From NCBI GenBank assembly GCA_034226945.1, contig CP120457.1, positions 1 to 64,000 on the forward strand: a stretch of 64,000 nucleotides of DNA, read 5' to 3'. Numbering within the stretch: the stretch's first letter is position 1; the number at the start of each line of letters is the position of its first letter. Positions 1 through 51,776 of this stretch are shown here, piece after piece. The stretch comes from Picochlorum sp. SENEW3 (Eukaryota). The position numbers were made by a program, and so were the translations under genes. The notes under the pieces are model-generated. The model had not been told where the DNA came from, made no database searches, and saw only the letters and a list, made by a program, of their open reading frames with translations.

Positions 1-25
1 GTACTTCGTTCAGTTACGTATTGCT
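1..25 (+). other. Oxford Nanopore ligation adapter remnant (technical artefact)
   Basis: GTACTTCGTTCAGTTACGTATTGCT matches the 3' part of the ONT Y-adapter top strand AATGTACTTCGTTCAGTTACGTATTGCT. Confidence 0.95.
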
Positions 26-43
26 CCCTATACCCTATACCCT
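26..43 (+). repeat. Telomere-like heptamers (CCCTATA x2 + CCCT)
   Basis: One-base variant of the plant/green-algal CCCTAAA repeat directly after the adapter; only 2.5 units. Confidence 0.4.
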
Positions 44-190
44 GTGCATACCGTCGTTCCTTGGCAGGAGGGTAATGAGGGTATATAACAACATATTCAC
101 CCCACTTCCACCACACAAACAAAAAATAAACACAATTTCTAAATTAAATAATATACAAACTACCCAAAAATAAGAAAATATCCAAAAAAT

Positions 191-1620
191 CAAAAATAAA
201 GCCAAGAAAAAACACCACCAACAAGACCAAAATACCCTAACCAAAAAAACACACCAACTAAAAAAACATCCAAAAACACCACCAAAAGAACGAGAATATA
301 CAATACAATATCAAGAAGAAGAATAAGTAGTATAATAAGCACCTATACTATATATACAAGGACAACAACGACAACAACAAAAGACACGGCACACCACAAG
401 CTCTGCTACTGCTACTGCTCCTCCTCCTCCTCCTACTACTACAACAACAACAGAAGGACACAATATTAAGTAAGTAAGTAAGTAAGAAGAATACCAATAC
501 CAATAATAATAATAATAATAATACACACCCATCATTGAAAAAAACTCCCACAACCAGTGGTGCAAAACATCAAACAGGTCTGCTGCCACATGTCTGAAGA
601 AGAAGAGGGAGCTTCTCGGAACAACAAGAATGGCGATCTTCCCATCACCCCTTGATTTGACTGGGACCACCACCAAAAATATACCAACCAATCCAAACCA
701 ATCAAAAGGGTGTTGTATAGTATTTAAAAAAAAATGCACTCATCAAAGTGTCGCACACCACGTGAAACAACTCCTCCTCCTCTGACACCACAAGATCTGC
801 TACTGCTACTACAATACAAGAGAACACACCAACAAAGAAGCAAAGCAATCAAAAGTAGAAGAAAGTAAATATCTCATAATAGTAGTAGTAATAATGATAA
901 TTAACATGCACACCAACAATCCACACGAGCAATAATACCAACCAATAATAACAGAACAGAACAAAGCATACAAGTCTCATGCACACAAGAAGAAGAACCA
1001 GGAGCTACCCTACACAGACAACATATGAGATAGAAAAGAGAGGTATCATAGTAGTAGTAGCATTTATAAAAAGAATAAATAGAAGACATGAAACAAGAAA
1101 ATGAATGAAAAAGATCGTCTCCTTCACAACAACAACAACCAAGAACCAGGCTGTGGCAAGCTCACTAGAGTGACATTGCACCATTGCTGGAGCAACTAGT
1201 ATATCAGTATCATCACCATGCATGGCATGCTTCCTTCAGTTGATTTCATGTGTTGCTGTAATTAGGGTAGCATATAAATGCGACGCTTCGTTGAAAAAAT
1301 GGGAAGATCTGGTCGTGTTTCATAGCAAAGAAAGACTGCTTTCACAGCACAGCTCTCGTCCTCCTCCTCCTGACTGCTGTGTGCTCCACATATCCAGGCG
1401 CTCCCATCAGAAGGGGTCTTCCATCGGAGTAGGAGGAAAAACAACAACGAAAAAAGAAACTACCATCATATCTCCGGTCAAATTTCCCTTGTGATGGGAG
1501 ATGAGAAAAGCACGCTGAGTGTGGCCGAACGGGTGCCTTAGAGCCGGCTCTAATACCATGGTCGCGCTTTTTTATTGTCTTCATTTACGGACGGACACTC
1601 CCGAGAGGAAGAAGGCCGGC
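191..1620 (+). repeat. Low-complexity A/C-rich block, copy A of a direct segmental duplication
   Basis: Collinear with 3555-5292, from CAAAAATAAAGCCAAGAAAAAACACCACC to CATTTACGGACGGACAC; contains CAA, AAT, CTA, CCT and AAGT microsatellites. Confidence 0.85.
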
Positions 1621-2589
1621 GTCATCAATGTCCCTGCTGTATAAATGGACCATTTGGCACCTTGCATAGTTTCTTTGGATACATTCAACACTTGGTGGTA
1701 GCACCGCAGATGTGACCCGAAACAGAAAACGCACTCAGCCACTTTCTTGCACACAACGCCTCATGTGGCCTCGGTGATCCCACACCCTTGCCACTCACCG
1801 GCAGTGCATAGCAGTATTGGTTGTTGGTATTGGATGATTGGACAAACACAACAATAATAAAAGGCTATTTCAGTCGGTGCCGAGTCGAATGGATTTCACG
1901 AACCGAATGGTCGTCGTTTCCGATCGCGTCGCGACGGTTGGGACGAAGACGCCGAGAATCGTTCCTTTGTGGGCATATGGGAGCGTCATTCTTGCTTTAA
2001 AATTATATATCAGTCGATAGAGCCGACGACTGACCACCACGGAGCACAACAGGGTTACAACAACAACCGTTCCACGGGAATGTCATGTCAACAACACTCG
2101 CAACGGTGCCAACAGGCCACGACCTCCTTCTCCCAGGTTTTCCACCCTCTAGTATCTTATATTGATATATCTTTCTCCCTCCATACATCAAAGTCACACG
2201 CGTTGCTTTGCCCTGAGATTGTTGCGAATTCTGTTGTGAACATTGGTGGTGAATGCGACGCGAAATACTCCTGACGCTGGTGAGCGGAGAAGCTCTTTAC
2301 ACTGCTAGTTCCTTCTCATCAAGTCGATATGAAATGCCTAAAGTCGGGAGACCACGGGTGAGAGCTTTCAACCTTCGAGTCTGAGGCAACTGCTTGTGCT
2401 TTGATTCCTGGCCCATTGCAAAAACATGCGGTGGCCAAGGTGGGTCCTCGCCATGTAAATGCGCCATCTGGCTCCTTGCATAGGTTTTTCGGATACATGC
2501 AAGGCTTAGTAGCACCACGGACGCTACGATATAGTGCTCACGTGCCCACAATCGTATCCCAAGCGTTGGGAAGTGACTCCCAAACACAC

Positions 2590-3521
2590 CCCTTGCTATC
2601 TGGTCGGTCGCCTCGAGTATGGCAAATCCGGGAGAAGGCATTTGAGATATTATATATACAAGCCTGCTGAATGCGACAGACCCAGAGGAAGATGTCTCAC
2701 GCGACCAGAAAAGTGACCCCAAGGGCGTTGCACTGGTCTTCTCAACCACCCCTCGCTATCTGGTCGGTCGTCGCGAGTATGGCAAATCTGGGAGAGGGCA
2801 TTTGAGATATTATATATACAAGCCTGCTGAATGCGACAGACCCAGAGGAAGATGTCTCACGCGACCAGAAAAGTGACCCCAAGGGCGTTGCAGCTGCCTT
2901 CTCAACCACCCCTCGCTATCTGGTCGGTCGTCGCGAGTATGGCAAATCTGGGAGCGGGCATTTGAGATATTATATATACAAGCCTGCTGAATGCGACAGA
3001 CCCAGAGGAAGATGTCTCACGCGACCAGAAAAGTGACCCCAAGGGCGTTGCAGCTGCCTTCTCAACCACCCCTCGCTATCTGGTCGGTCGTCGCGAGTAT
3101 GGCAAATCCGGGAGAGGGCATTTAAGATATTATATATATAAGCCTGCTGAATGCGACAGACCCAGAGGAAGATGTCTCATGCGGCCAGAAAAGTGACCCC
3201 AAGGGTGTTGCAGCTGCCTTCCCAACCACCCCTCGCTATCTGGTCGGTCGTCGCGAGTATGGCAAATCTGGGAGAGGGCATTTGAGATATTATATATACA
3301 AGCCTGCTGAATGCGACAGACCCAGAGGAAGATGTCTCACGCGACCAGAAAAGTGACCCCAAGGGCGTTGCAGCTGCCTTCTCAACCACCCCTCGCTATC
3401 TGGTCGGTCGTCGCGAGTATGGCAAATCCGGGAGAGGGCATTTGAGATATTATATATACAAGCCTGCTGAATGCGACAGACCCAGCAAAACGCCTCTCAC
3501 GCGACCAGGAGAGTGACCCCA
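2590..3521 (+). repeat. 160-bp tandem array, ~6 near-identical copies (degenerate extra copy upstream to ~2430)
   Basis: CCTCGCTATCTGGTCGGTCG recurs at 2591 (variant), 2751, 2911, 3071, 3231 and 3391; exact 160-nt period. Confidence 0.97.
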
Positions 3522-3554
3522 AGCCAAAAGTTTGAGGTTCTGAACACCCCTTTA

Positions 3555-5292
3555 CAAAAATAAAGCCAAGAAAAAACACCACCAACAAGACCAAAATACC
3601 CTAACCAAAAAAACACACCAACCAAAAAAACATCCAAAAACACCACCAAAAGAACGAGAATATACAATACAATATCAAGAAGAATAATAAGTAGTATAAT
3701 AACCACCTATACTATATATACAACAACAACAACAACAACAACAACAAAAGACACGGCATACCACAAGCTCTGCTACTACTACTGCTCCTCCTCCTCCTAC
3801 TATTACTACTACAACAACAAGAGAAGACAACAACAACAACAGCAACCAACACAAAAGAAGCAAAGCAAAACCAAAATCAAAAGATACAAATCTCATAATA
3901 ATCAGAATGACACAACAACAATCTATACTATGCTATGCATGAATGAAAAGAGTCTCTGTCCTTTTTCACAACAGCAACAGAAGGACACAATATTAAGTAA
4001 GTAAGTAAGAAGAATACCAATACCAATAATAATAATAATAATAATACACACCCATCATTAAAAAAAAACTCCCACAACCAGTGGTGCAAAACAAACAGTG
4101 GTCTGCTGCCACATGTCTGGAAGAAGAGGGAGCATCTCGGAACAACAAGAATGGCGATCTTCCCGTCATCATCACCACCCCTTGACTTCTTAAAGGACTT
4201 GACTGGGACCACCACCAAAAAATACCAACCAAACCAAGCAAGGGTGTCTAAAACAGCCACCCCACACAACAACAACAACAACAATACAATAAATCAACAA
4301 CCATCCAGCATTCACACCACCACCACTACTACTACTGCTGCTGCTGCTATAACACGAGACAACACACCAACAAACAAAGAAGCAAAGCAATCAAAAGAAG
4401 AAGAAAGTAAATATTTCATAATAGTACTAATAATGTAATAATGATTATAACATGCACAACAACAATCGACATGAGCTATAATAGCAACCAATAATAACAG
4501 AACACAACAAAGCACACAAGTCTCATGCACACAAGAAGAACAACCTGGAGCTCGACTCACAGACAACATGTGAGATAGAGAAAGAGTTTATTATATAAGA
4601 GTTAGAATAATAACTGTGAAATGAATATATAAGGAAAAGACATCATGGAACAAGAATGAAATGAAAACAAATCGTCGTCTTCACAACAAGCTGGTGCCAT
4701 GAAGTCTGTCTCCACAAAGAACAACAGCGACAAGAAGACCAGAGAGAGGTGTAATAAGAAGTATATGAAAAGAACAAATTTATAAGAGACAGGAAAGGAG
4801 AAAAAGAATGAAAGGAAATCGTCTTCTTCACAACAACAACAACAACAAGAACCAAGCTGTGGCAAGCACTAGAGTACCGTTGCAGCAGTTACAATGCTGG
4901 AGCAACTATCAGTATCATCATCATGCATGGAACGCTTACTTAATTACTTAGACTTCATGAGTTGCAATGAGGATAGGATAGTAGGATATAATTATATATA
5001 TACAATTGCGACGCTTCTTTGGGGAAGATCTCGTCGTGTTTAAAGACTGTTCCACAGCTCTATCCTCCTCCACCTGTGTGTGCTCCGTATCCAGGCTCCC
5101 ATCAGAAGAGGTGTTTGATGGAGGAGAGAACTACACTGCCGGTCAAACGTCCCTTGTGATGGGAGATGAAAAAAGCCACAAAAAGCACGCTGAGTGTGGC
5201 CGAGCGGATAAAGCGTGTGGTTTCATGGTCGTCCTTTTTTATTGTCCTCATTTACGGACGGACACGCCTCGCGAGAAAAGAAAAGAGGCCGA
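3555..5292 (+). repeat. Low-complexity A/C-rich block, copy B of the direct segmental duplication
   Basis: Diverged copy of 191-1620 with insertions. Confidence 0.85.
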
Positions 5293-6989
5293 CCTTACTG
5301 ATCGATCCAATACTCTGTCGGACCGATGCCTTCAGTCTATCTACCCCTCCCGATGGAGACAAGACCTTTGACGAGATACCTCTTCTGCTACCACACCTTT
5401 TGTTCTTCTTCTTCTCTACAACTATTACTATTACTGTCGGTTTACTAAAAACAAACAACAATAGTTACTGCTGTTGCTGCTCTAGAGGTAGAAACAACGA
5501 AACAACGAAGAGAGTAGTAGTAATAGCAATAGCACACAATGTGTGCTCACCCACCATCCACAGACTCAACCCAATTAAACAGCTTCAAACATATCTCCAC
5601 ACACACTGATTCGTGGATTCAGAAAACACAAGAATAACACGAATGATGAAAAAATATGTTCTAATCGATCTATTCTATCGTATGGTAAGTAGGACAACGT
5701 GTGAATATAAGGATGGATGTGGACACACACACTTATGCTGCACAGGGATCTGTTGGGAATCATGCAACACACCCTGCTGTCCTGACACGCGACTGCTTTT
5801 TGAGCAGTGTTTGTAGTAGTATGTCGTATCCTTGTACATCAACAATACAAGAACAAAAGATATATAACAGAATCAATCTGGTTTGGATGGAAATGATAAG
5901 TGTTGTCTGTCCACCACACACTATTAGGGAATCTGGCCACCACAGGAGCTGCTCTGACCTGGATGAATGAATGTAGGATCTACAACTACTACAGAAGAAA
6001 AAAAAGAAAGGCTTCTCTGCTACACAACGATCAACATTCAAAAGTAAAACATCGAGAACAAAGAAAATTTATTATCATGCGTTTGTATACCAGTCAACAA
6101 CATTGAACGGAATGTAATAGAACAACAATACAAAAAGAGCCTGTGACAAGAAAGGAGGTGAGCTCACCCTCAATAGGTTGGTTGTTGAATGGGGCTCTAC
6201 TAGTATTTGACACCTTGTCGAATAGTCGAAATTCAAAAGGCTGCCAAGCAACAAGAACAAGAAAAGGAGTTGAGAAGATTGGAAGAGCAGGCACAGCCTC
6301 AAACCGAGGCAAGAAAAAAAAAAGAATAAGAAGCCACGAGCCAGGCTCGCAGGACAAATCGATCCATCTGTTCGAAAAAGAAAAGAAAAATTAAGAGCGG
6401 AAAGCACACAGGGAAAGTGCAACGTTCGACGACAAACAAAGGGGCAGTTTCACCACAAGAGGCCCAGAGGTGCATCCCACAACCACCCGCTGGCTTGGTT
6501 TTCTTTCGTCTGTCGTTTCCTTGACTTGATTCGATACTATTTTTAAATGTTGGATTGACACGTGTAATGTACAATCAATACTGCGCAGAGAAATGGTGGG
6601 ACTCAGGGTCGGTCCACATGAGAGTCCACATGAGAATGGATGGATGTCCACATGCTACACAACACAATGGTCCATCTGCCCCTCAGATGGACCGTCCATC
6701 CATAGCCTTAGAATGTATGCGTACATTGCCAAACCACCACGATGACACACGATGATTGCATACATACCACTAGTAGTGGTATTTACTTACTACTAAAGGT
6801 GGTAGAAAAGACCTTGGCCATACCAACCCGACCTACAGCCATGGGCCATGACACCTCAGTGACCGAGGTAGTGCAACGAGTAGAAAAAGTCAGAGCACCA
6901 TATTTGGCATTAAATATGACCCTCATGATGTATGTAGTGAAATGATACAGGGGTATTCCCGTTTGTCAATGAGTTGAATGTCCTATCAA

Positions 6990-43234: not shown

Positions 43235-43617
43235 ACAGCATAGCCTTTTGAACAGATGAGATGGTCTGAGGCGACTCGTCTTTCAGAAGTTGTTTCAGGG
43301 GATTTGGTACTGCGAAACAGGTCAACAACAAAGTCCATGTGGATCTCGAAAGATCCATGGAAAAGATACGAGAAACAGCACACAAGGTGGCTGGCACAAT
43401 AGGCCCTTGCTACCTTGTTGCTGGAATCCCAGTACTGGGATAGGTAGGGTATCAACTAGTTGATCTTGATGTGAAAATTAAAATTATTGTTACATCATAT
43501 GCAAGTGGACTGAACATATATGAACTATATAGTTCGATCCATTGCAATCAAAACATTGACATATGTATGATGCATCATGGCATATGCCCGCATGGAGTGG
43601 AAAGAGAAGAAGAGATC

Positions 43618-43906
43618 TCATTCAGTCCAACCACATCGCCTCTTGAATACTGTTCTTGCTTCCTCACTCAAACCCATGGCATCAATGAGTTCCTCCATCT
43701 GCTCATCTTCGATCCCTGTATGCTCTCATCTCATGCGAAATCCACATCCCCAGATTGAACCTCCGTGGTCCATTCCCATCGCTGAGATCATACTCAGCAT
43801 TCGTTTCTGCCTCGTTCCGACGGGGAATTGCGCTGAAACCGACAGCATTCTGATGCAGTCTCCTGCGCTCCCTGAGAGCTTGACGTTTCTCTTCACGACT
43901 GGCCAT
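43618..43906 (-). pseudogene. Stand-alone inverted copy of the HA-like C-terminal repeat, frameshifted by an 8-nt deletion
   Basis: MASREEKRQALRERRRLH...GNGPRRFNLGMWISHE, shift near 43705, then EQMEELIDAMGLSEEARTVFKRRCGWTE*. Confidence 0.85.
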
Positions 43907-44801
43907 GGTTTCGTTTCGCACAAATGAAAAGGAGGAGTAGCACATGCTGCAATCAATCTTTCGTGATATTCCTCTACATATTGAGGTTATTATTCATGTA
44001 AATTATCAGAAATCAGATGGAATACGCCGCGGAACGGTTGTGATAGAATTCAGTCTGATCAACTTGATCTTGGCAAGATGTCGCTCGCAGTTCGATACGG
44101 TTGAAACCGTTTGTAGTGATAAAAACAGGTTCTAGCCAAATAAATACACCAATATGTCATATATATGTGATACTAATGACATATGATCGCACGTACACGA
44201 GTTTCGGTTGAAGGTTGACTTCCGCTGGGTTTGAATATTCTGCTCTCGATATGCTCCTCTGCTACTCTCGACGAGAAGAAAGGAGATGACGATAGACAGT
44301 TACTATTTTGAGAGAATTATTGTTTAATATATGAATTGGAGGCACGCATACTGCGTGGTATTGTAGTCTTGTCCATGCGATTTGATCGATTCCCGAATAA
44401 TGTGTCCTTCTGAACAAAGGCCGACACCTTGCATGACATTCATGCAGCAAATCAACACGAGCATCTATTACACCATCATCCACTCCAGAAGATGGTTTGT
44501 GTTTTATTTTATTATAATAATATCAATCATTTCATAGAGGCAATAATACCCTTTAAAATTATATGTATAGAAGATATCAACTGCTGCTTCCATAAGGATA
44601 GTTTGGTACGCATCTCTCTGGTTCTCGCGAAACTTCCCACAAGATGGGAAATGATGCATTATTCACAGCGTATTCTTTTGATTTTGAATAATATATTATG
44701 TTGATAATTAAACATGTATCCAATGCAGTGTACACTCGTTCGCACGCACGAGCAAGTGTGGTATCGAGCCAGCACAAAGCCACTGATTGCTTGAAATCGA
44801 A

Positions 44802-45850
44802 ATGCATCAGTCTTCAAACAGTGAAAACGCTTGGGCTACTGATGATCTTTACGATAAGATATGTTGCGGTGAGTTTGATGAACATGTGAGGGGGAAGATC
44901 TGTGACAACAGATCAGATGAGAATTCCTCCATGCAACTGAATGAGATTCGAATTATGTGTGGGCATGACTTGGAGAATCTCGTGGATATGAGGCAATTTC
45001 AGAAAGGCACGACTACTCCGCCACATATGGCATTTAAAATTGAATGTCCAGTCCCAGTCTCAGTGCAAGGGGTCAATCAAGTATTCATCGGATCGGTCGC
45101 AAAGGAGAGTCCAGATCTCGACATCTGTGCAGACAGGCCCAAGACACAGAAGAACTGCGACACAGTCATACTTTATGCGATTCATACGAGTCGCCTCATC
45201 AAGGAGATGAGGGAAGATTTTGCAAACAATGCGAAAGCTACAAACGCACTCATGTGTCTGCAAAGATGTCTCAGTAACACAGGCCCAAGTCAAAGGCTGC
45301 GACGGGTATGCCTCCTTGTCCTGCTGATGGCCTCGATCCAGCGCCATACAAGCTCTAGAGGGGAACCTCTCAGGAAGGTGTATCACTGGAGTGATGGGCT
45401 GCAAGAGATGTTGAGGACTATCCGTAGTGGCAAAGAACTTAAATGTGAGAAACTAAAGGAGGCAAGAAATGCACAGTATGATCTTTTAACAGCTTCTAGT
45501 GTGATTGAAGATCCAACAATCGAGGAATCAAATGATAAGAGATCAAAGATGGAGGAGCCTGTCAGGGAGCTAGATGATAATACAAATCCACCATGCAAAG
45601 GCAACAGTCAACCGGTGGATACCAGAGCGAATGCACCTCCTACAGATTCAGATCCTACTCACGACACGAGAGTACCTACTCGTATGGAGGGTAATAATGA
45701 TGATATTTTTTTTGGGAGGATGTGGTGGATTTGCCACAAGATGTTGATGCTCTAGATTTTGGGGATGCACCACATTTCAGAACCGATGAAACAGGGCTGT
45801 ATAGATTCGATGCTACAGATCTGAACCTCCAGAAGTCCCAAGATCCCTGA
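44802..45850 (+). CDS. Orphan hypothetical protein; apparent -1 frameshift in T8 run at 45706-45713
   Basis: Open frame 44802-45755; adding one T continues into acidic WEDVVDLPQDVDALDF...QDP* ending 45850. Confidence 0.55.
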
Positions 45851-46543: not shown

Positions 46544-46770
46544 GGATACTTGCCGGTTACTTGCCGGATACTTGCCGGTTACTTGCCGGATACTTGCCGG
46601 ATACTTGCCGGTTACTTGCCGGTTACTTGCCGGTTACTTGCCGGTTACTTGCCGGATACTTGCCGGTTACTTGCCGGATACTTGCCGGTTACTTGCCGGA
46701 TACTTGCCGGATACTTGCCGGATACTTGCCGGTTACTTGCCGGATACTTGTTGGATACTTGCCGGTTACT
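46544..46770 (+). repeat. 11-bp tandem array GG(A/T)TACTTGCC, 20 copies plus a partial copy
   Basis: Counted directly; only position 3 varies (A/T), plus one CC>TT copy at 46742. Confidence 0.98.
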
Positions 46771-47207
46771 ATTTAGGTTTAGATCTGCGATGATGCAATC
46801 GCGATATTTTGTATAGTATCGCTACAGCGGGTATTGCGCAGTCGAATTGGATGTATTTAGTATTATTTTATGTTTGCAATCACCCTGAGGGTGAACGGAT
46901 AAGCAGGTGAGTCCTGGTTGAATTGCTACGTCGCGAAACTGTCTTGTTTTCTTGATCATGTCTAAAAAGCACCTATCTTTCAATTGTATCACGCCGAATA
47001 TGTGTATATGTGCAGTAATAGAGAATTGTACTGTACAAACAGCATTGCATGCTTGGGAAGCTCAAATAGTGCTACTGCAATAGTGCCCAGAGACATCGTG
47101 GAGAAAAGGTGCGTTTGATTGCTTGTGACGATTCTTGCGAATGTTGCAAAAGATATATAGATATATAATGTATAATCAATCAAATATGTGATGTGCAGCC
47201 TATCCAC

Positions 47208-50200
47208 ATGACAAGGAAAAGGAAGCCATCTGCCAAGCCCAAGAAGAAGGAGACATCTCCCGTCCTTGGCTGTAGGGGCAATAGAGACTCCTTCAAGCGA
47301 CCCAGAGTCGCTTCCAATGCTCAAACATCTACCATGGGGGCAGAGCCAGGTGTACTGGTAAGCAATCGCCGGCAGACCAGGCGCCGTGTGGGGACCAGCC
47401 ATGGGTCACCATTTGGCACTGTGTCAACGACACAAGATGCCGTGCTTGAGGATGTCACCGATGTAGACACGGTTCCCATCACCACTCCAGAGGAGCAAGG
47501 TATGTTGTTGTATGATGTATGTTTTCGGTACATACATTGAGATGTGTATCTCTCTTGGCACGTTCATTCACATACTATTGATGCTATTGTAGATGTAGTC
47601 GGCTCTGATTTGGCATCTGGTAGTGAGGATATTCACCCATCATCAGAGGGTAACACAACAGCATCCATTCAAGAGGCATATTTATGCACATTAAATAGCG
47701 AAAGGAGAAGCATCATCGAGAAAAGTTTGAATGATCTCGATTATTTATCAGACTTTATTCGGCGCACCTGTTCTGGGAAAATAGACAATTTTAAGGACCG
47801 TCTTATCGCATGTTCGAGGAAGTTGAGACAAAGCGCTGCAGTCCAGAGACTGGTTGATGTGAATATCGTCATTTCAGCCAGTGATGCGTCAGATGAGCTT
47901 TTTGCTTCAGCCGATGAAGCCATCAAAATCCCTTTGATGGAGTATTACAAACTTAAAGAGGGATTTCTCCGAAATCAAGAATGTGTGGATGCGAAAGGCA
48001 TTCCAGAGGTGGTCAAATTCACAAAGGAGATTTGTCTGGATGACGAGTTGCAGGAATTTTCAATGGCTTTGATTGCTCTGCTTGCTTCAGAGTATGAAAA
48101 CGGCGTCGAGGGGCTCTACGATGCACTTGAGAGAGCAATCGAGCAAAAAGTAGGCAGTGAGCAAAGGACATTGGAAGACATTAGGCAATCTTTCACAGAG
48201 TGCATGGAAGATTTTTTGCAACCCCATATTGGCCCTGAATGGACAATCCGTCACTTCGAGGAGAATGAAGCCATTCCGTCAAAGTATGAACGCATCTTTC
48301 CCGAAACTATTCATCTGTATGAATTTGTTAAAGAGGGGCTGAAGATGAGTACAGAAAGGTTGCTCGGAGTGCTAGTATTTCCAGAGGCAATCAAGTTCTC
48401 CCGACAGTTGACCGCTACGGGGACGTATGCTAGTCATGTGCTCTTGCCTAGGCAATATACGACAGATGGTGGTGTTCAATGGCGCTATACGCTCCATCAG
48501 GACTTTTTTTTCGGTAGTGTGCCAACTGGAGATGATTCCCACGTGTTTGTGTCTACTGAGGGCCGGTGCATCAATTCACGAGGTAAATCTTTGGTAATTT
48601 CCGTCAGCGGGCAATTGCGCCCGAAATTTTTGATTGATGCTGAATCCAAAAAAGAAGAAGTACGCAAGAGGTTCGCAATACATCAAGTGGTAGGCATGGC
48701 AAAATATAAGTGGACTCCATCTCAATTCCTTAAGAAATGTGGGCCAGGGATGAGTACCGACCACCTCATCATCCAAGCATCCTATAATCAACCTTCCCTT
48801 TTGAGGATTGCTGATGCAAAACAACAGGCGAATAATAAACGACCACGCTCTCGGGAGACTTTTAGAGGACAAAGTGTGGAGGTTTGCTACACTCAATTTA
48901 AGCATCTGTCTAACGAGAGGAAGGCCATTGCTCAGAGATGCAAGGGCAGTTTCGAGGAGAATGGTTTGCTACTGGTGCGCCTGGAACAAGATGGAGACAA
49001 CTGGAAATTAGATGATCCGAATTTATCTGAAAAATGGGTTGACGTTGTGAGATGCACAAATGTCCTTTTCTTTGAGGAGGAACAATGCATCTGGAGGAAG
49101 TATGGTGATGGGTGGATTTTCCTGGCTGATGTCATGGACATTACACAAAGGACTAGGTACAGAGGGATGAGCATTGCGGGAGAAAGTACACTGATTTCGT
49201 GTACCATAGCATACACAAAGTTGTGCGCTGCAGTACTTGGGAAACACCATCTCTCTAAAAAATTCCTCCACAAGTTTCAACTTGAAGATATTGCCAGGCG
49301 CACAGATGAAGATGGGGTTCAGATCAAGACTGTCTGGAGACGAGATGACGGTGCCATAGAGAATCTAATGGTCGATCATATCAATGGCCAAACTGGTTTG
49401 AATCGATCAGACAATCTTCGAGTGGTAACCAATGGGGAGAATGCTGCCCTATCTCGTGGGAAAGGAAGAAGAGCAATCATTTCCAATAATGGCAAGGAAG
49501 AGACTGTCACTGGAGACACTACTAAAGAACTCGGTGGAAAAATCGTGAATACAATGCGAGAGATGGAATTTCCAAAAGAGCAAATTCCTTCTCCAGAGAC
49601 GGTCAGTAGCGAATGGATAACAAAGAGGCTAATCCCAAAACGCCTACAGGACAAGATTGTCATACAAGATGTGGATGATCAAAAAGATAATGCTGATGAG
49701 GATCGGTTTTTCCCAACTAACGTCATCTGGTTCTTGGGAACATTTGAAGACAAAGATACTGGCGAGATTCATGAGCAGGCATACTGGGGAAATGAAAGGA
49801 TGCTTGTAGGAATCAAGAAAACGCTGGGTTTGTCAGAATTGGATTCCACACGATTTGTCAATGTGGCACATATGTACGACAAGAAATATCGAAGGGAAGT
49901 CATCAGAAAAGAGTTCTCTCATATTGGAGAGGGAAGCAGGTATGTGCTTGTTGATTTGTATTCATCTCGCACTTGGACACGGGGTGTGAATTCCAAGGCT
50001 CGTGGAGGAAGGCGCGAAGAAAGACGTCAAGCTCTCAGGGAGCGCAGGAGACTGCATCATGATGATGCCGATTTCAGCGAAATTCCCATTGACAACAAGG
50101 CAGAAGGGAGTGCTAAATATGATCTCAACGATGGGAATGGACCACGGAAGTTCGGTCTAGGGACTTGGGTTGCTAGGGAGTTTGTAGCATACAAGAATGG

Positions 50201-50612
50201 AAAAAGAACAAATGAAGAAATGGAGGAACTCATGGCTGACATGGGTTTGAGCGAGGAAGCAAGAACAGTATTCAAGAGGCGATGTGGTTGGAAAGTCGAT
50301 GGTGTTCCTGCTTGTCTGAGTGCTCGCGAAGAGAAACGTCAAGCTCTCAGGGAGCGCAGGAGACTGCATCATGATGATGCCAATTTCAGCGAAATTCCCA
50401 TTGACAACAAGGCAGAAGGGAATGCTGAATATGATCTCAACGATGGGAATGGACCACGGAAGTTCAAGTTAGGGTCCTGGATTTGTAGTGAGATTAAAGC
50501 ATACAAAAAGGGAAAAAGAACAAATGAAGAAATGGAGGAACTCATGGATGACATGAGTTTGAGTGAGGAAGGCAGAACAGAATTCAAGAGGCGATGTGGT
50601 TGGACTGAATGA
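47208..50612 (+). CDS. ~1100-aa nuclear protein: NLS, two NUMOD4-like/HNH endonuclease modules, two HA-like C-terminal repeats
   Basis: Exon 1 MTRKRKPSAKPKKK, in-frame intron 47500-47592; VFVSTEGR...IHQVV...TDHL...N..LLR...QQANN; MVDHINGQTGLNRSDNLRVVTNGEN; 312-nt repeats at 50013 and 50325. Confidence 0.85.
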
Positions 50613-51776
50613 GATCTCTCCTTCTCTAGAGAAAGATCTTTCCAGTCATGTGGGCATCATATATATGTCAATGTTTTGATTGCGATATTGTATATTTACG
50701 GATCGAACTATGATCAATCCACTTGCACATGATATAAAATTTTTTTTAATATCAAGATAGAAACCCCTGACCTGTACATTGTCCTCATCTTTACAAAAAT
50801 AACTCTTTATTGTATCTCCCGATCCAAAGGGAGTTGGACTTTACAAAATCCATCTCAGCATGGGTTTGCTAGGAACTCAACTTTCAAAGTTGAGAGCAAA
50901 AGTGCTTCTTCAGTCGTGTTGGTCCTCAGAGGTGTCGATATACAGCATGAGGAGTTTTCTTATCAATTTGTCTTAGGCCACTCTTAATTAATTCTGCTGT
51001 TCCCGTCAAATCGCCTACTACTTTTGGGAGGAGAGGGGCCGAGATTTATAAATCGTCTGTTGCACAAAATCTGTAACGAATTGGACCAAATAGATGCCAC
51101 CATGCGATAGAACTCGTCGAGAGGAGTCGATTGACGGGGTTTGAGGCTCAAACTCGATCATGATGCATCGTGATTGGCCATGGCCAGTCCTGAGGGCAGA
51201 CGATCCAGTCGGCAAAAATTTGAAATTTTACAAAGATTGGCTCGAGTCAAATTCACTTGAGGGATGCAGAGGGCCTAAGAGGAAGAAGAGGAAGAATGTT
51301 TTGAATGATAACTAGCTTCAAATATGAAGATATGCTGTACAGTAGACTTAGTCAGCAGCTACTGAATAGGGTTCCCTGGTGGAGGTTGACCAACCATGCT
51401 CTCAATGACCAGAAACGGAGCCAGGTGGTGATTTTTTGGGCATGATGGCTACTCAAGAGTATTAAATGCCATATTTGATCAATAAACACATTAAAACCCT
51501 TTACAGAGTAACCCCTGCACAGGGTAAAAGATTCTCTGGTCCACGTCTCATCAAAGATCAATGGCCTTCCTTCGGTTCTTTTTTCATACTCGTTGATTAA
51601 TTCAGCTTTGCAAAACTCTGCGAGTTCTCTATGGAGCCGTGAAGGTCCCCAAACCAACAAGTGCATGGTTTCAAGTCATGCCTTTTCAACCAATTCACAA
51701 GGGTCGCTCATCACAATCAAGATCGTGCAAATACAGGTTAAAAAAATAATAAATAAATAAATAAATTAAGACATTG

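Follow-up and report, generated by a model that had tools for sequence, protein, structure and literature searches.

Positions 47208-50612 of the window (the whole stretch analysed here, 64,000 nucleotides, positions 1 to 64,000 of contig CP120457.1) hold a trebouxiophyte green alga gene whose product is probably, though with considerable room for doubt, a host-resident nuclear nuclease or nickase of a small unnamed family that arose from a mobile tandem HNH endonuclease. The basic N-terminus would bring the protein into the nucleus, where the second of its two HNH modules, which carries a full Asp-His...Asn...Asn site, would act as a divalent-metal-dependent DNA nickase or nuclease. The first module would pair with it, much like its counterparts in the tandem HNH endonucleases of viruses, either as a DNA-contacting pseudo-nuclease or as a second, weakened active site, and the flanking domains together with the C-terminal HA-like units would provide target binding.

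The gene is real, expressed, spliced and nuclear. All elements of the gene model proposed by the first-pass annotation of this DNA, namely the start codon, the GT-AG intron with its in-frame join, the exon open to the stop codon and the tract resembling a nuclear localisation signal (NLS), were located, and their coordinates are collected in Table 1. Exon 1 comprises 97 codons plus one spare base, and its product starts MTRKRKPSAKPKKK. Contigs assembled from public sequencing runs mapped over 47000-50800 in four runs (X1, X5, X6 and X12), and the spliced form was present in three of these, from three studies, which bears out the predicted intron. The intron-less joint runs from 47497 to 47591 (93 nt skipped, GT..AG, cut +2), with a side of 255 in X1, 28 in X5 and 89 in X6; the RNA nature of these three runs is a guess, and the spliced-form evidence is therefore compatible with an intron-less DNA copy. 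The fourth run, X12, is a declared metatranscriptome and covers 25 of the 30 bins of the gene region, with none of its contigs bridging the 93-nt intron. Among the contigs of the four runs no additional joints were found in exon 2, and contig cover ends at approximately 50682, with zero depth past 50683 in every run.

Table 1. Features of the HNH gene and of the related repeat copy, in window coordinates.
Feature	Position	Strand	Basis and remarks
5' leader	46852..47211	+	Two introns and an upstream open reading frame (ORF); contig joints and loose ends, frame from sequence
Main ATG	47208	+	Sequence; basic tract RKRKPSAKPKKK at residues 3-14
Coding exon 1	47208..47499	+	Ends in phase 1; basic, probably disordered N-terminus; NLS-like RKRKPSAKPKKK at 47214-47249
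Intron	47500..47592	+	93-nt GT..AG spliceosomal intron, phase 1, in-frame stop inside; sequence and intron-less contigs
Coding exon 2	47593..50612	+	Open frame of 1005 codons plus stop, TGA at 50610-50612; product P0001
N-terminal domain	47700..48470	+	Family-specific, fold not assigned; conserved in P0004-P0007, P0011, P0113 and P0118
Module 1	48480..48860	+	Diverged I-HmuI-like HNH; Asp389-His390 at 48759-48764; Gln411 at 48825-48827 in the place of the metal-binding Asn
Module 2	49029..49460	+	HNH_3 domain; Asp594-His595 at 49374-49379; metal-binding Asn616 at 49440-49442
Post-HNH region	49461..50012	+	Family-conserved motifs W-[FY]..F, Y.GK and LVDLYSS; alignment A2
Two HA-like units	50013..50609	+	50013-50324 and 50325-50609; recent 312-nt tandem duplication, 1.9 copies
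Decayed solo HA-like unit	43603..43915	-	Inverted; tblastn and inverted-repeat search; 8 nt shorter, premature TGA

Judged by profile matches and alignment, module 2 is a member of the HNH_3 or I-HmuI-type His-Me finger group. HNH_3 (PF13392) is the sole Pfam family above its cut-off in the whole protein, where it matches residues 580-617. It scores 26.9 bits over the full length and 29.1 bits on the excised piece against a cut-off of 24.8, in agreement with the intact HNH_3-type signature claimed on first inspection, which spans 49371-49442. PHROG families of phage HNH endonucleases match the same module (best E 3.3e-5), and the only sequence match of the family profile in the PDB is to I-HmuI residues 70-97, whose Asp74, His75 and Asn96 pair with the Asp-His and the final Asn of module 2. 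The catalytic Asp-His...Asn...Asn set is intact, and all 11 family rows, which share 22-49% identity overall, retain the Asp-His and the terminal Asn. Since even highly divergent members keep this set unchanged, module 2 is predicted to work as a metal-dependent nickase or nuclease.

Module 1, whose motifs as quoted in the first-pass annotation lie at 48543-48836, had been described there as degenerate. It is not a product of mere decay, since its Asp-His, Gln and Asn-Lys are invariant in all 11 family rows, representing approximately eight lineages below 50% identity. The full HNH_3 catalytic set is absent despite the retained Asp-His: in most members Gly stands in for the structural Asn, and the invariant Gln occupies the metal-ligand position held by Asn in I-HmuI. 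The PHROG search with module 1 returned a single weak HNH match (phrog_3593, E 0.0086), and in an alignment of 78 rows that includes tandem proteins from outside the family (A4), the first and second domains of those proteins fall on modules 1 and 2, respectively. Module 1 is a constrained variant, which would be either a pseudo-site that contacts DNA or a second site in modified form.

The two-module model predicted from A4 reached a mean pLDDT of 81.3 and a pTM of 0.57 and displayed the beta-beta-alpha motif in both modules, as the first-pass annotation had anticipated, on an alignment that leans to HNH_3. In module 2 the motif occupies model residues 313-345 (strands 313-320 and 333-337, helix 338-345; block pLDDT 84-92), and in module 1 residues 111-140, the latter assignment being A4-based and so biased towards the HNH_3 fold. 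The strands ahead of each HNH core superpose, in the predicted model, on the N-terminal sheet of I-HmuI. A Foldseek search of the PDB gave nothing at E<=1e-3, the best match being I-HmuI (1u3e) at E 0.018 with a probability of 0.98, and a sequence search of the PDB with the two-module piece gave chance matches only (E ~1). The same model gave 46 matches at E<=1e-3 in BFVD. The best of these (E ~1e-6) span 360-400 columns and both modules, and belong to HNH endonucleases of Pithovirus, PBCV-1 (Q98474), Hyperionvirus, Terrestrivirus, EsV-1 and Marseillevirus, with TM-scores of just 0.2-0.3. The resemblance to tandem HNH endonucleases of chloroviruses and giant viruses, which had been noted from the letters of the sequence, therefore holds at the level of the fold; the NUMOD4 (PF07463) modules that were named with it are not supported, as no match was found at Pfam E<=10 for the whole protein or for its pieces.

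The alternative that survives best is a protein that has been domesticated for DNA binding or regulation and has no catalytic role, in which the HNH modules would serve as recognition folds only, as proposed for the AP2/ERF domains accompanying HNH_3 endonucleases, with the HA-like units adding binding. We consider this unlikely, but a serious contender. The deviation of module 1 from the HNH_3 consensus speaks for it, as do the large extra domains and the nuclear-type N-terminus; moreover, HNH_3+AP2 proteins (P0020 and P0022) are among the nearest outside matches, and Jablonska et al. 2017 (PMC5714182) assign I-HmuI and an ERF-type factor to one and the same His-Me group. What speaks against it is that module 2 has kept its Asp-His, both Asn and the terminal Asn at 22-49% identity, which is hard to explain without catalysis, and that even module 1 has kept its Asp-His in every family row.

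The protein belongs to a small unnamed family, and no named family covers its whole architecture, HNH_3 being the only Pfam family above cut-off; the first-pass annotation had likewise recognised no named family. A word-indexed search returned two proteins, a hypothetical protein of Picochlorum sp. SENEW3 (P0003, 89% identity, 1094 amino acids) and an ENA protein (P0004, 40%), and when it was run with alignment A2, P0003 and P0118 were among the matches listed. An exhaustive profile search of 1.84 billion representatives (E<=1e-3) yielded 99 matches, 12 of which share non-HNH regions with the window protein (P0004-P0012, P0014, P0019 and P0098). Among their cluster mates are two models from Picochlorum renovo and another gene of SENEW3, and Picochlorum paralogues are represented by P0009, P0112 and P0113. 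The remaining 87 proteins match the HNH_3 core only, with 33-49 bits; they are mostly 150-500 residues long with two HNH_3 domains, and some of them carry NUMOD4 (P0015 being one), I-HmuI-type NUMOD or AP2. Literature searches found no paper on this tandem-HNH algal family.

The common plan of the family in A2 consists of the N-terminal domain, module 1 (EGRCI ... MAKY ... G.s.DHL ... QQ..NK.P), a linker (MVRLE, FE.E.CIW), module 2 (DHING.TGDNR..NLR.V...N), the post-HNH region and a variable tail. Approximately eight divergent full-length lineages share the N-terminal and post-HNH domains, and the post-HNH region is found too in the short proteins P0009, P0012 and P0014. The tail amounts to about 500 extra residues in P0005, P0006, P0109, P0014 and P0098 and contains HA-like units in the Picochlorum proteins P0003, P0009 and P0012, with none in P0004. 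P0011, P0112 and P0113, from Picochlorum renovo and an ENA contig, form a second Picochlorum paralogue line. They are 26-27% identical to the window protein and possess the N-terminal domain of the family plus the beginning of module 1; these gene models end inside module 1 and may be truncated models or decayed genes.

Most likely, the gene behaves as a resident host gene rather than a recent insert. Twelve neighbouring ORFs were scanned, seven of which contain cellular Pfam domains (XPD-type helicase, pentapeptide, ankyrin-methyltransferase, DnaJ, ADH, TPT and scramblase) and five gave no match, none being viral. The guanine-cytosine (GC) content at third codon positions is 0.436, compared to 0.44-0.58 for 17 other ORFs, and thus lies within or just below the host range; GC is slightly lower across 44-52 kb. 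Identity to relatives falls off alike in the adjoining ankyrin-methyltransferase gene (96, 89 and 76%, then 37 and 36%) and in the HNH gene (89%, then 40 and 38%). An examination for an endogenous giant-virus element found neither viral hallmark neighbours nor foreign composition. Two scans of IMG/VR viral contigs confirmed no relatives among 75 (A1) and 42 (A5) pattern matches, and scans of metagenome contigs confirmed none of 218 (A1) and none of 228 (P0114), although such scans use two to six short peptide patterns each and are weak evidence of absence. In 50,697 phage records, tblastn detected nothing similar to the modules at E<=0.01, and when the intergenic stretches (43.2-47.3 and 50.6-51.8 kb) were compared with the family by blastx, only the solo repeat copy and the leader were recovered.

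These data bear directly on the explanation put forward in the first-pass annotation, that a viral nuclease has acquired an intron, an NLS and extra repeats. The viral-type tandem architecture stood up, and the tandem module does most likely go back to a mobile endonuclease of the kind found in phages or giant viruses; the rest fared less well, in that the closest relatives are algal, the neighbours are host genes and the IMG/VR scans were negative. The closest homologues are in fact those of Picochlorum, which leads some distance towards the outcome that the first-pass annotation itself had named as fatal to its reading, namely closest homologues that are conserved, vertically inherited algal genes; evidence for vertical inheritance extends no further than Picochlorum. 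A recent capture from a giant virus or chlorovirus, or an element that is still selfish or mobile, with intron, NLS and repeats lately gained and possibly forming a cassette between the inverted HA-like copies (43603-43900 and 50324-50627), seems to us improbable. It would account for the fold matches to Nucleocytoviricota tandem HNH endonucleases, including PBCV-1 Q98474, for the dip in GC, for the inverted repeats around a 6.4-kb block, for the several Picochlorum paralogues and for the fast evolution with copy-number change in the repeats and exon 1. It fits poorly with three spliceosomal introns (those of the leader included), with a near-full-length SENEW3 counterpart at 89% identity, with non-HNH domains common to relatives at just 22-40% identity and with the empty IMG/VR and phage searches and the lack of viral hallmark genes nearby. 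Furthermore, each inverted arm derives from the coding part of a repeat unit, in one case decayed, and the arms are not typical terminal repeats.

Several observations weigh against a resident nuclease built on a tandem HNH endonuclease. The module 1 piece gave no Pfam match even at E<=10. On the supporting side, a hidden Markov model (HMM) of module 1 matched 87 of 90 outside HNH_3 proteins, with the best match on the HNH core in 77 of the 87 and with scores (forward median 5.3, maximum 19.8 bits) set against a maximum of 2.9 for reversed sequences, but the 90-protein test set had been chosen with a profile that included module 1. Comparison of the module 1 and module 2 profiles by hhalign was non-significant (probability 0.7%, E 0.083), the alignment being colinear. 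With HMMs built from 44 outside tandem proteins, scores for module 1 stayed between -1.8 and 12.3 bits; in nine of 12 rows the HMM of the first domain outscored that of the second. When the 12 family rows alone were used, the two-module piece (377 residues) gave a poor model with a mean pLDDT of 51, and A4 places genuine first HNH_3 domains on module 1, so that the better model leans to that fold. BFVD is a viral-only database, and viral best matches in it are no proof of viral origin. Because the model was built on an HNH_3-rich alignment and BFVD covers viruses only, the predicted structure results show likeness of architecture, not descent. Most relatives lie on contigs of 3.6-8.3 kb that are nearly filled by the ORF and look like transcripts, and their host may be an alga or a virus. 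Finally, the gene evolves fast: the 40 best-supported of 202 strain differences hit 37 codons, 13 synonymously and 24 not, where 21% synonymous would be expected at random, for a rough dN/dS near 0.5.

A bolder form of the favoured reading, which we regard as rather unlikely, would make this an old family, present in green algae and perhaps in other protists, in which a tandem HNH homing endonuclease of giant-virus type turned into a large nuclear enzyme with one canonical and one re-tooled site (Asp-His...Gln). Such an enzyme would be site- or modification-specific, acting for example in a eukaryotic restriction-like antiviral defence, and its target-binding ends would be fast-evolving, as seen in the duplicated HA-like unit and in the indels of exon 1. 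Least probable of all is a site-specific nuclear endonuclease in which both modules are active and jointly make a double-strand cut, with Gln411 as metal ligand, in defence against DNA viruses, recombination or repair: the invariant Asp-His, Gln and Asn-Lys of module 1, the tandem architecture common to viral endonucleases and the weak homing-endonuclease match that was the only one returned by PADLOC (14.4 bits, E 0.0064) are compatible with it, but the structural Asn of module 1 is Gly in most family members, no defence-system family was matched and the genomic context gives no defence signal.

Outside the HNH modules the protein has few recognisable parts. Pfam gave nothing for the N-terminal 295 residues or for residues 643-806, an NCBIfam scan of the protein gave no match, and the ESM Atlas gave no usable match for the N-terminal domain or the C-terminal repeats. 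The HA-like repeats described in the first-pass annotation are a genuine 312-nt tandem duplication, with arms (50013-50292 and 50325-50604) that are 91% identical, but their assignment to HA (PF03457) stays below the Pfam threshold: against a cut-off of 28.4 bits, the full-length protein scores 20.5 and the single units 14.2 and 15.6. The likeness to HA lies in LG.W...Y..GK....E....L, which matches positions 26-59 of the 64-position profile; besides the low scores, the window protein differs from HA proteins in having no helicase attached. The HA profile did not match P0009 or P0012, and a profile of five HA-like units gave chance cytochrome c4 matches in the PDB and no HA chain. The number of units varies from none in P0004 and one in SENEW3 to two in the window gene.

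The solo HA-like copy upstream of the gene starts with its own ATG and has 78-91% DNA identity to the repeats of the gene. Together with 50324-50627 it forms inverted repeats of approximately 300 nt that bracket the 6.4-kb block, and loose ends in the contigs of other strains resemble it. Between the solo copy and the HNH gene lies an ORF of 322 codons on the plus strand (44787-45755), which has no Pfam match and is unrelated to the family. Elsewhere, positions 1-6000 differ from the remainder of the window: their GC content is low (0.41-0.48) and their AT skew strong (0.20-0.27).

The N-terminus is length-polymorphic between strains, and the SENEW3 model P0003 differs in exon 1. An alternative joint in X5, from 47287 to 47591, skips 303 nt with ACA between and corresponds to a strain whose exon 1 is about 70 codons shorter, as in the SENEW3 protein. 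Of the two leader introns, the one at 47109-47198 is seen as a joint from 47106 to 47197 (90 nt skipped, GT..AG, cut +2) in X1 only, with a side of 27, while the one at 46907-47015 is inferred, the loose ends before 47012 in X1, X5 and X6 being equal to window positions of approximately 46873-46902. The upstream ORF has about 54 codons, and its TGA overlaps the main ATG (ATGA); in P0003 this ORF is fused in frame to the protein, probably via a different donor site. Just upstream of the leader, at 46544-46770, lies an 11-nt microsatellite (GGATACTTGCC) of 20.6 copies with 92% matching.

It is unusual for a spliced and expressed nuclear family to embed tandem HNH modules in proteins of 900-1460 residues, and the family would clearly exemplify how a mobile nuclease becomes part of the biology of its host. 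If active, the protein would be a eukaryotic nuclease of compact size whose two active sites form a naturally asymmetric pair, and since Picochlorum is genetically tractable, its function is open to testing. Endonucleases of the HNH_3/I-HmuI type come overwhelmingly from viruses and bacteria: Jablonska et al. 2017 (PMC5714182) count 795 viral, 3288 bacterial, 13 archaeal and only 28 eukaryotic sequences in the group.

I-HmuI of Bacillus phage SPO1 (PDB 1u3e), which the same authors assign to His-Me finger group 2, is an intron-encoded phage nickase of 174 residues with one module and NUMOD/HTH tails, whereas the window protein has no NUMOD match and combines approximately 1100 residues, a spliced nuclear gene, two modules and unrelated N-terminal and post-HNH domains. 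The metagenome tandem NUMOD4/HNH_3 and HNH_3+AP2 proteins (P0013, P0015-P0018, P0020 and P0022) have 150-500 residues, a canonical first domain and nothing in common with the family outside the HNH cores; the likeness lies in those cores, which match module 2 with 33-49 bits, and in the domains aligning on modules 1 and 2. The tandem HNH endonucleases of Nucleocytoviricota (PBCV-1 Q98474, Pithovirus, Marseillevirus and EsV-1-119) measure 330-580 residues and are without the flanking domains of the family, the TM-scores of 0.2-0.3 indicate that domain orientations differ, and the viral contig scans gave no sequence-level relative of the window protein. What they share with it is the arrangement of two HNH modules in series, over Foldseek alignments of 360-400 columns that take in the whole two-module model.

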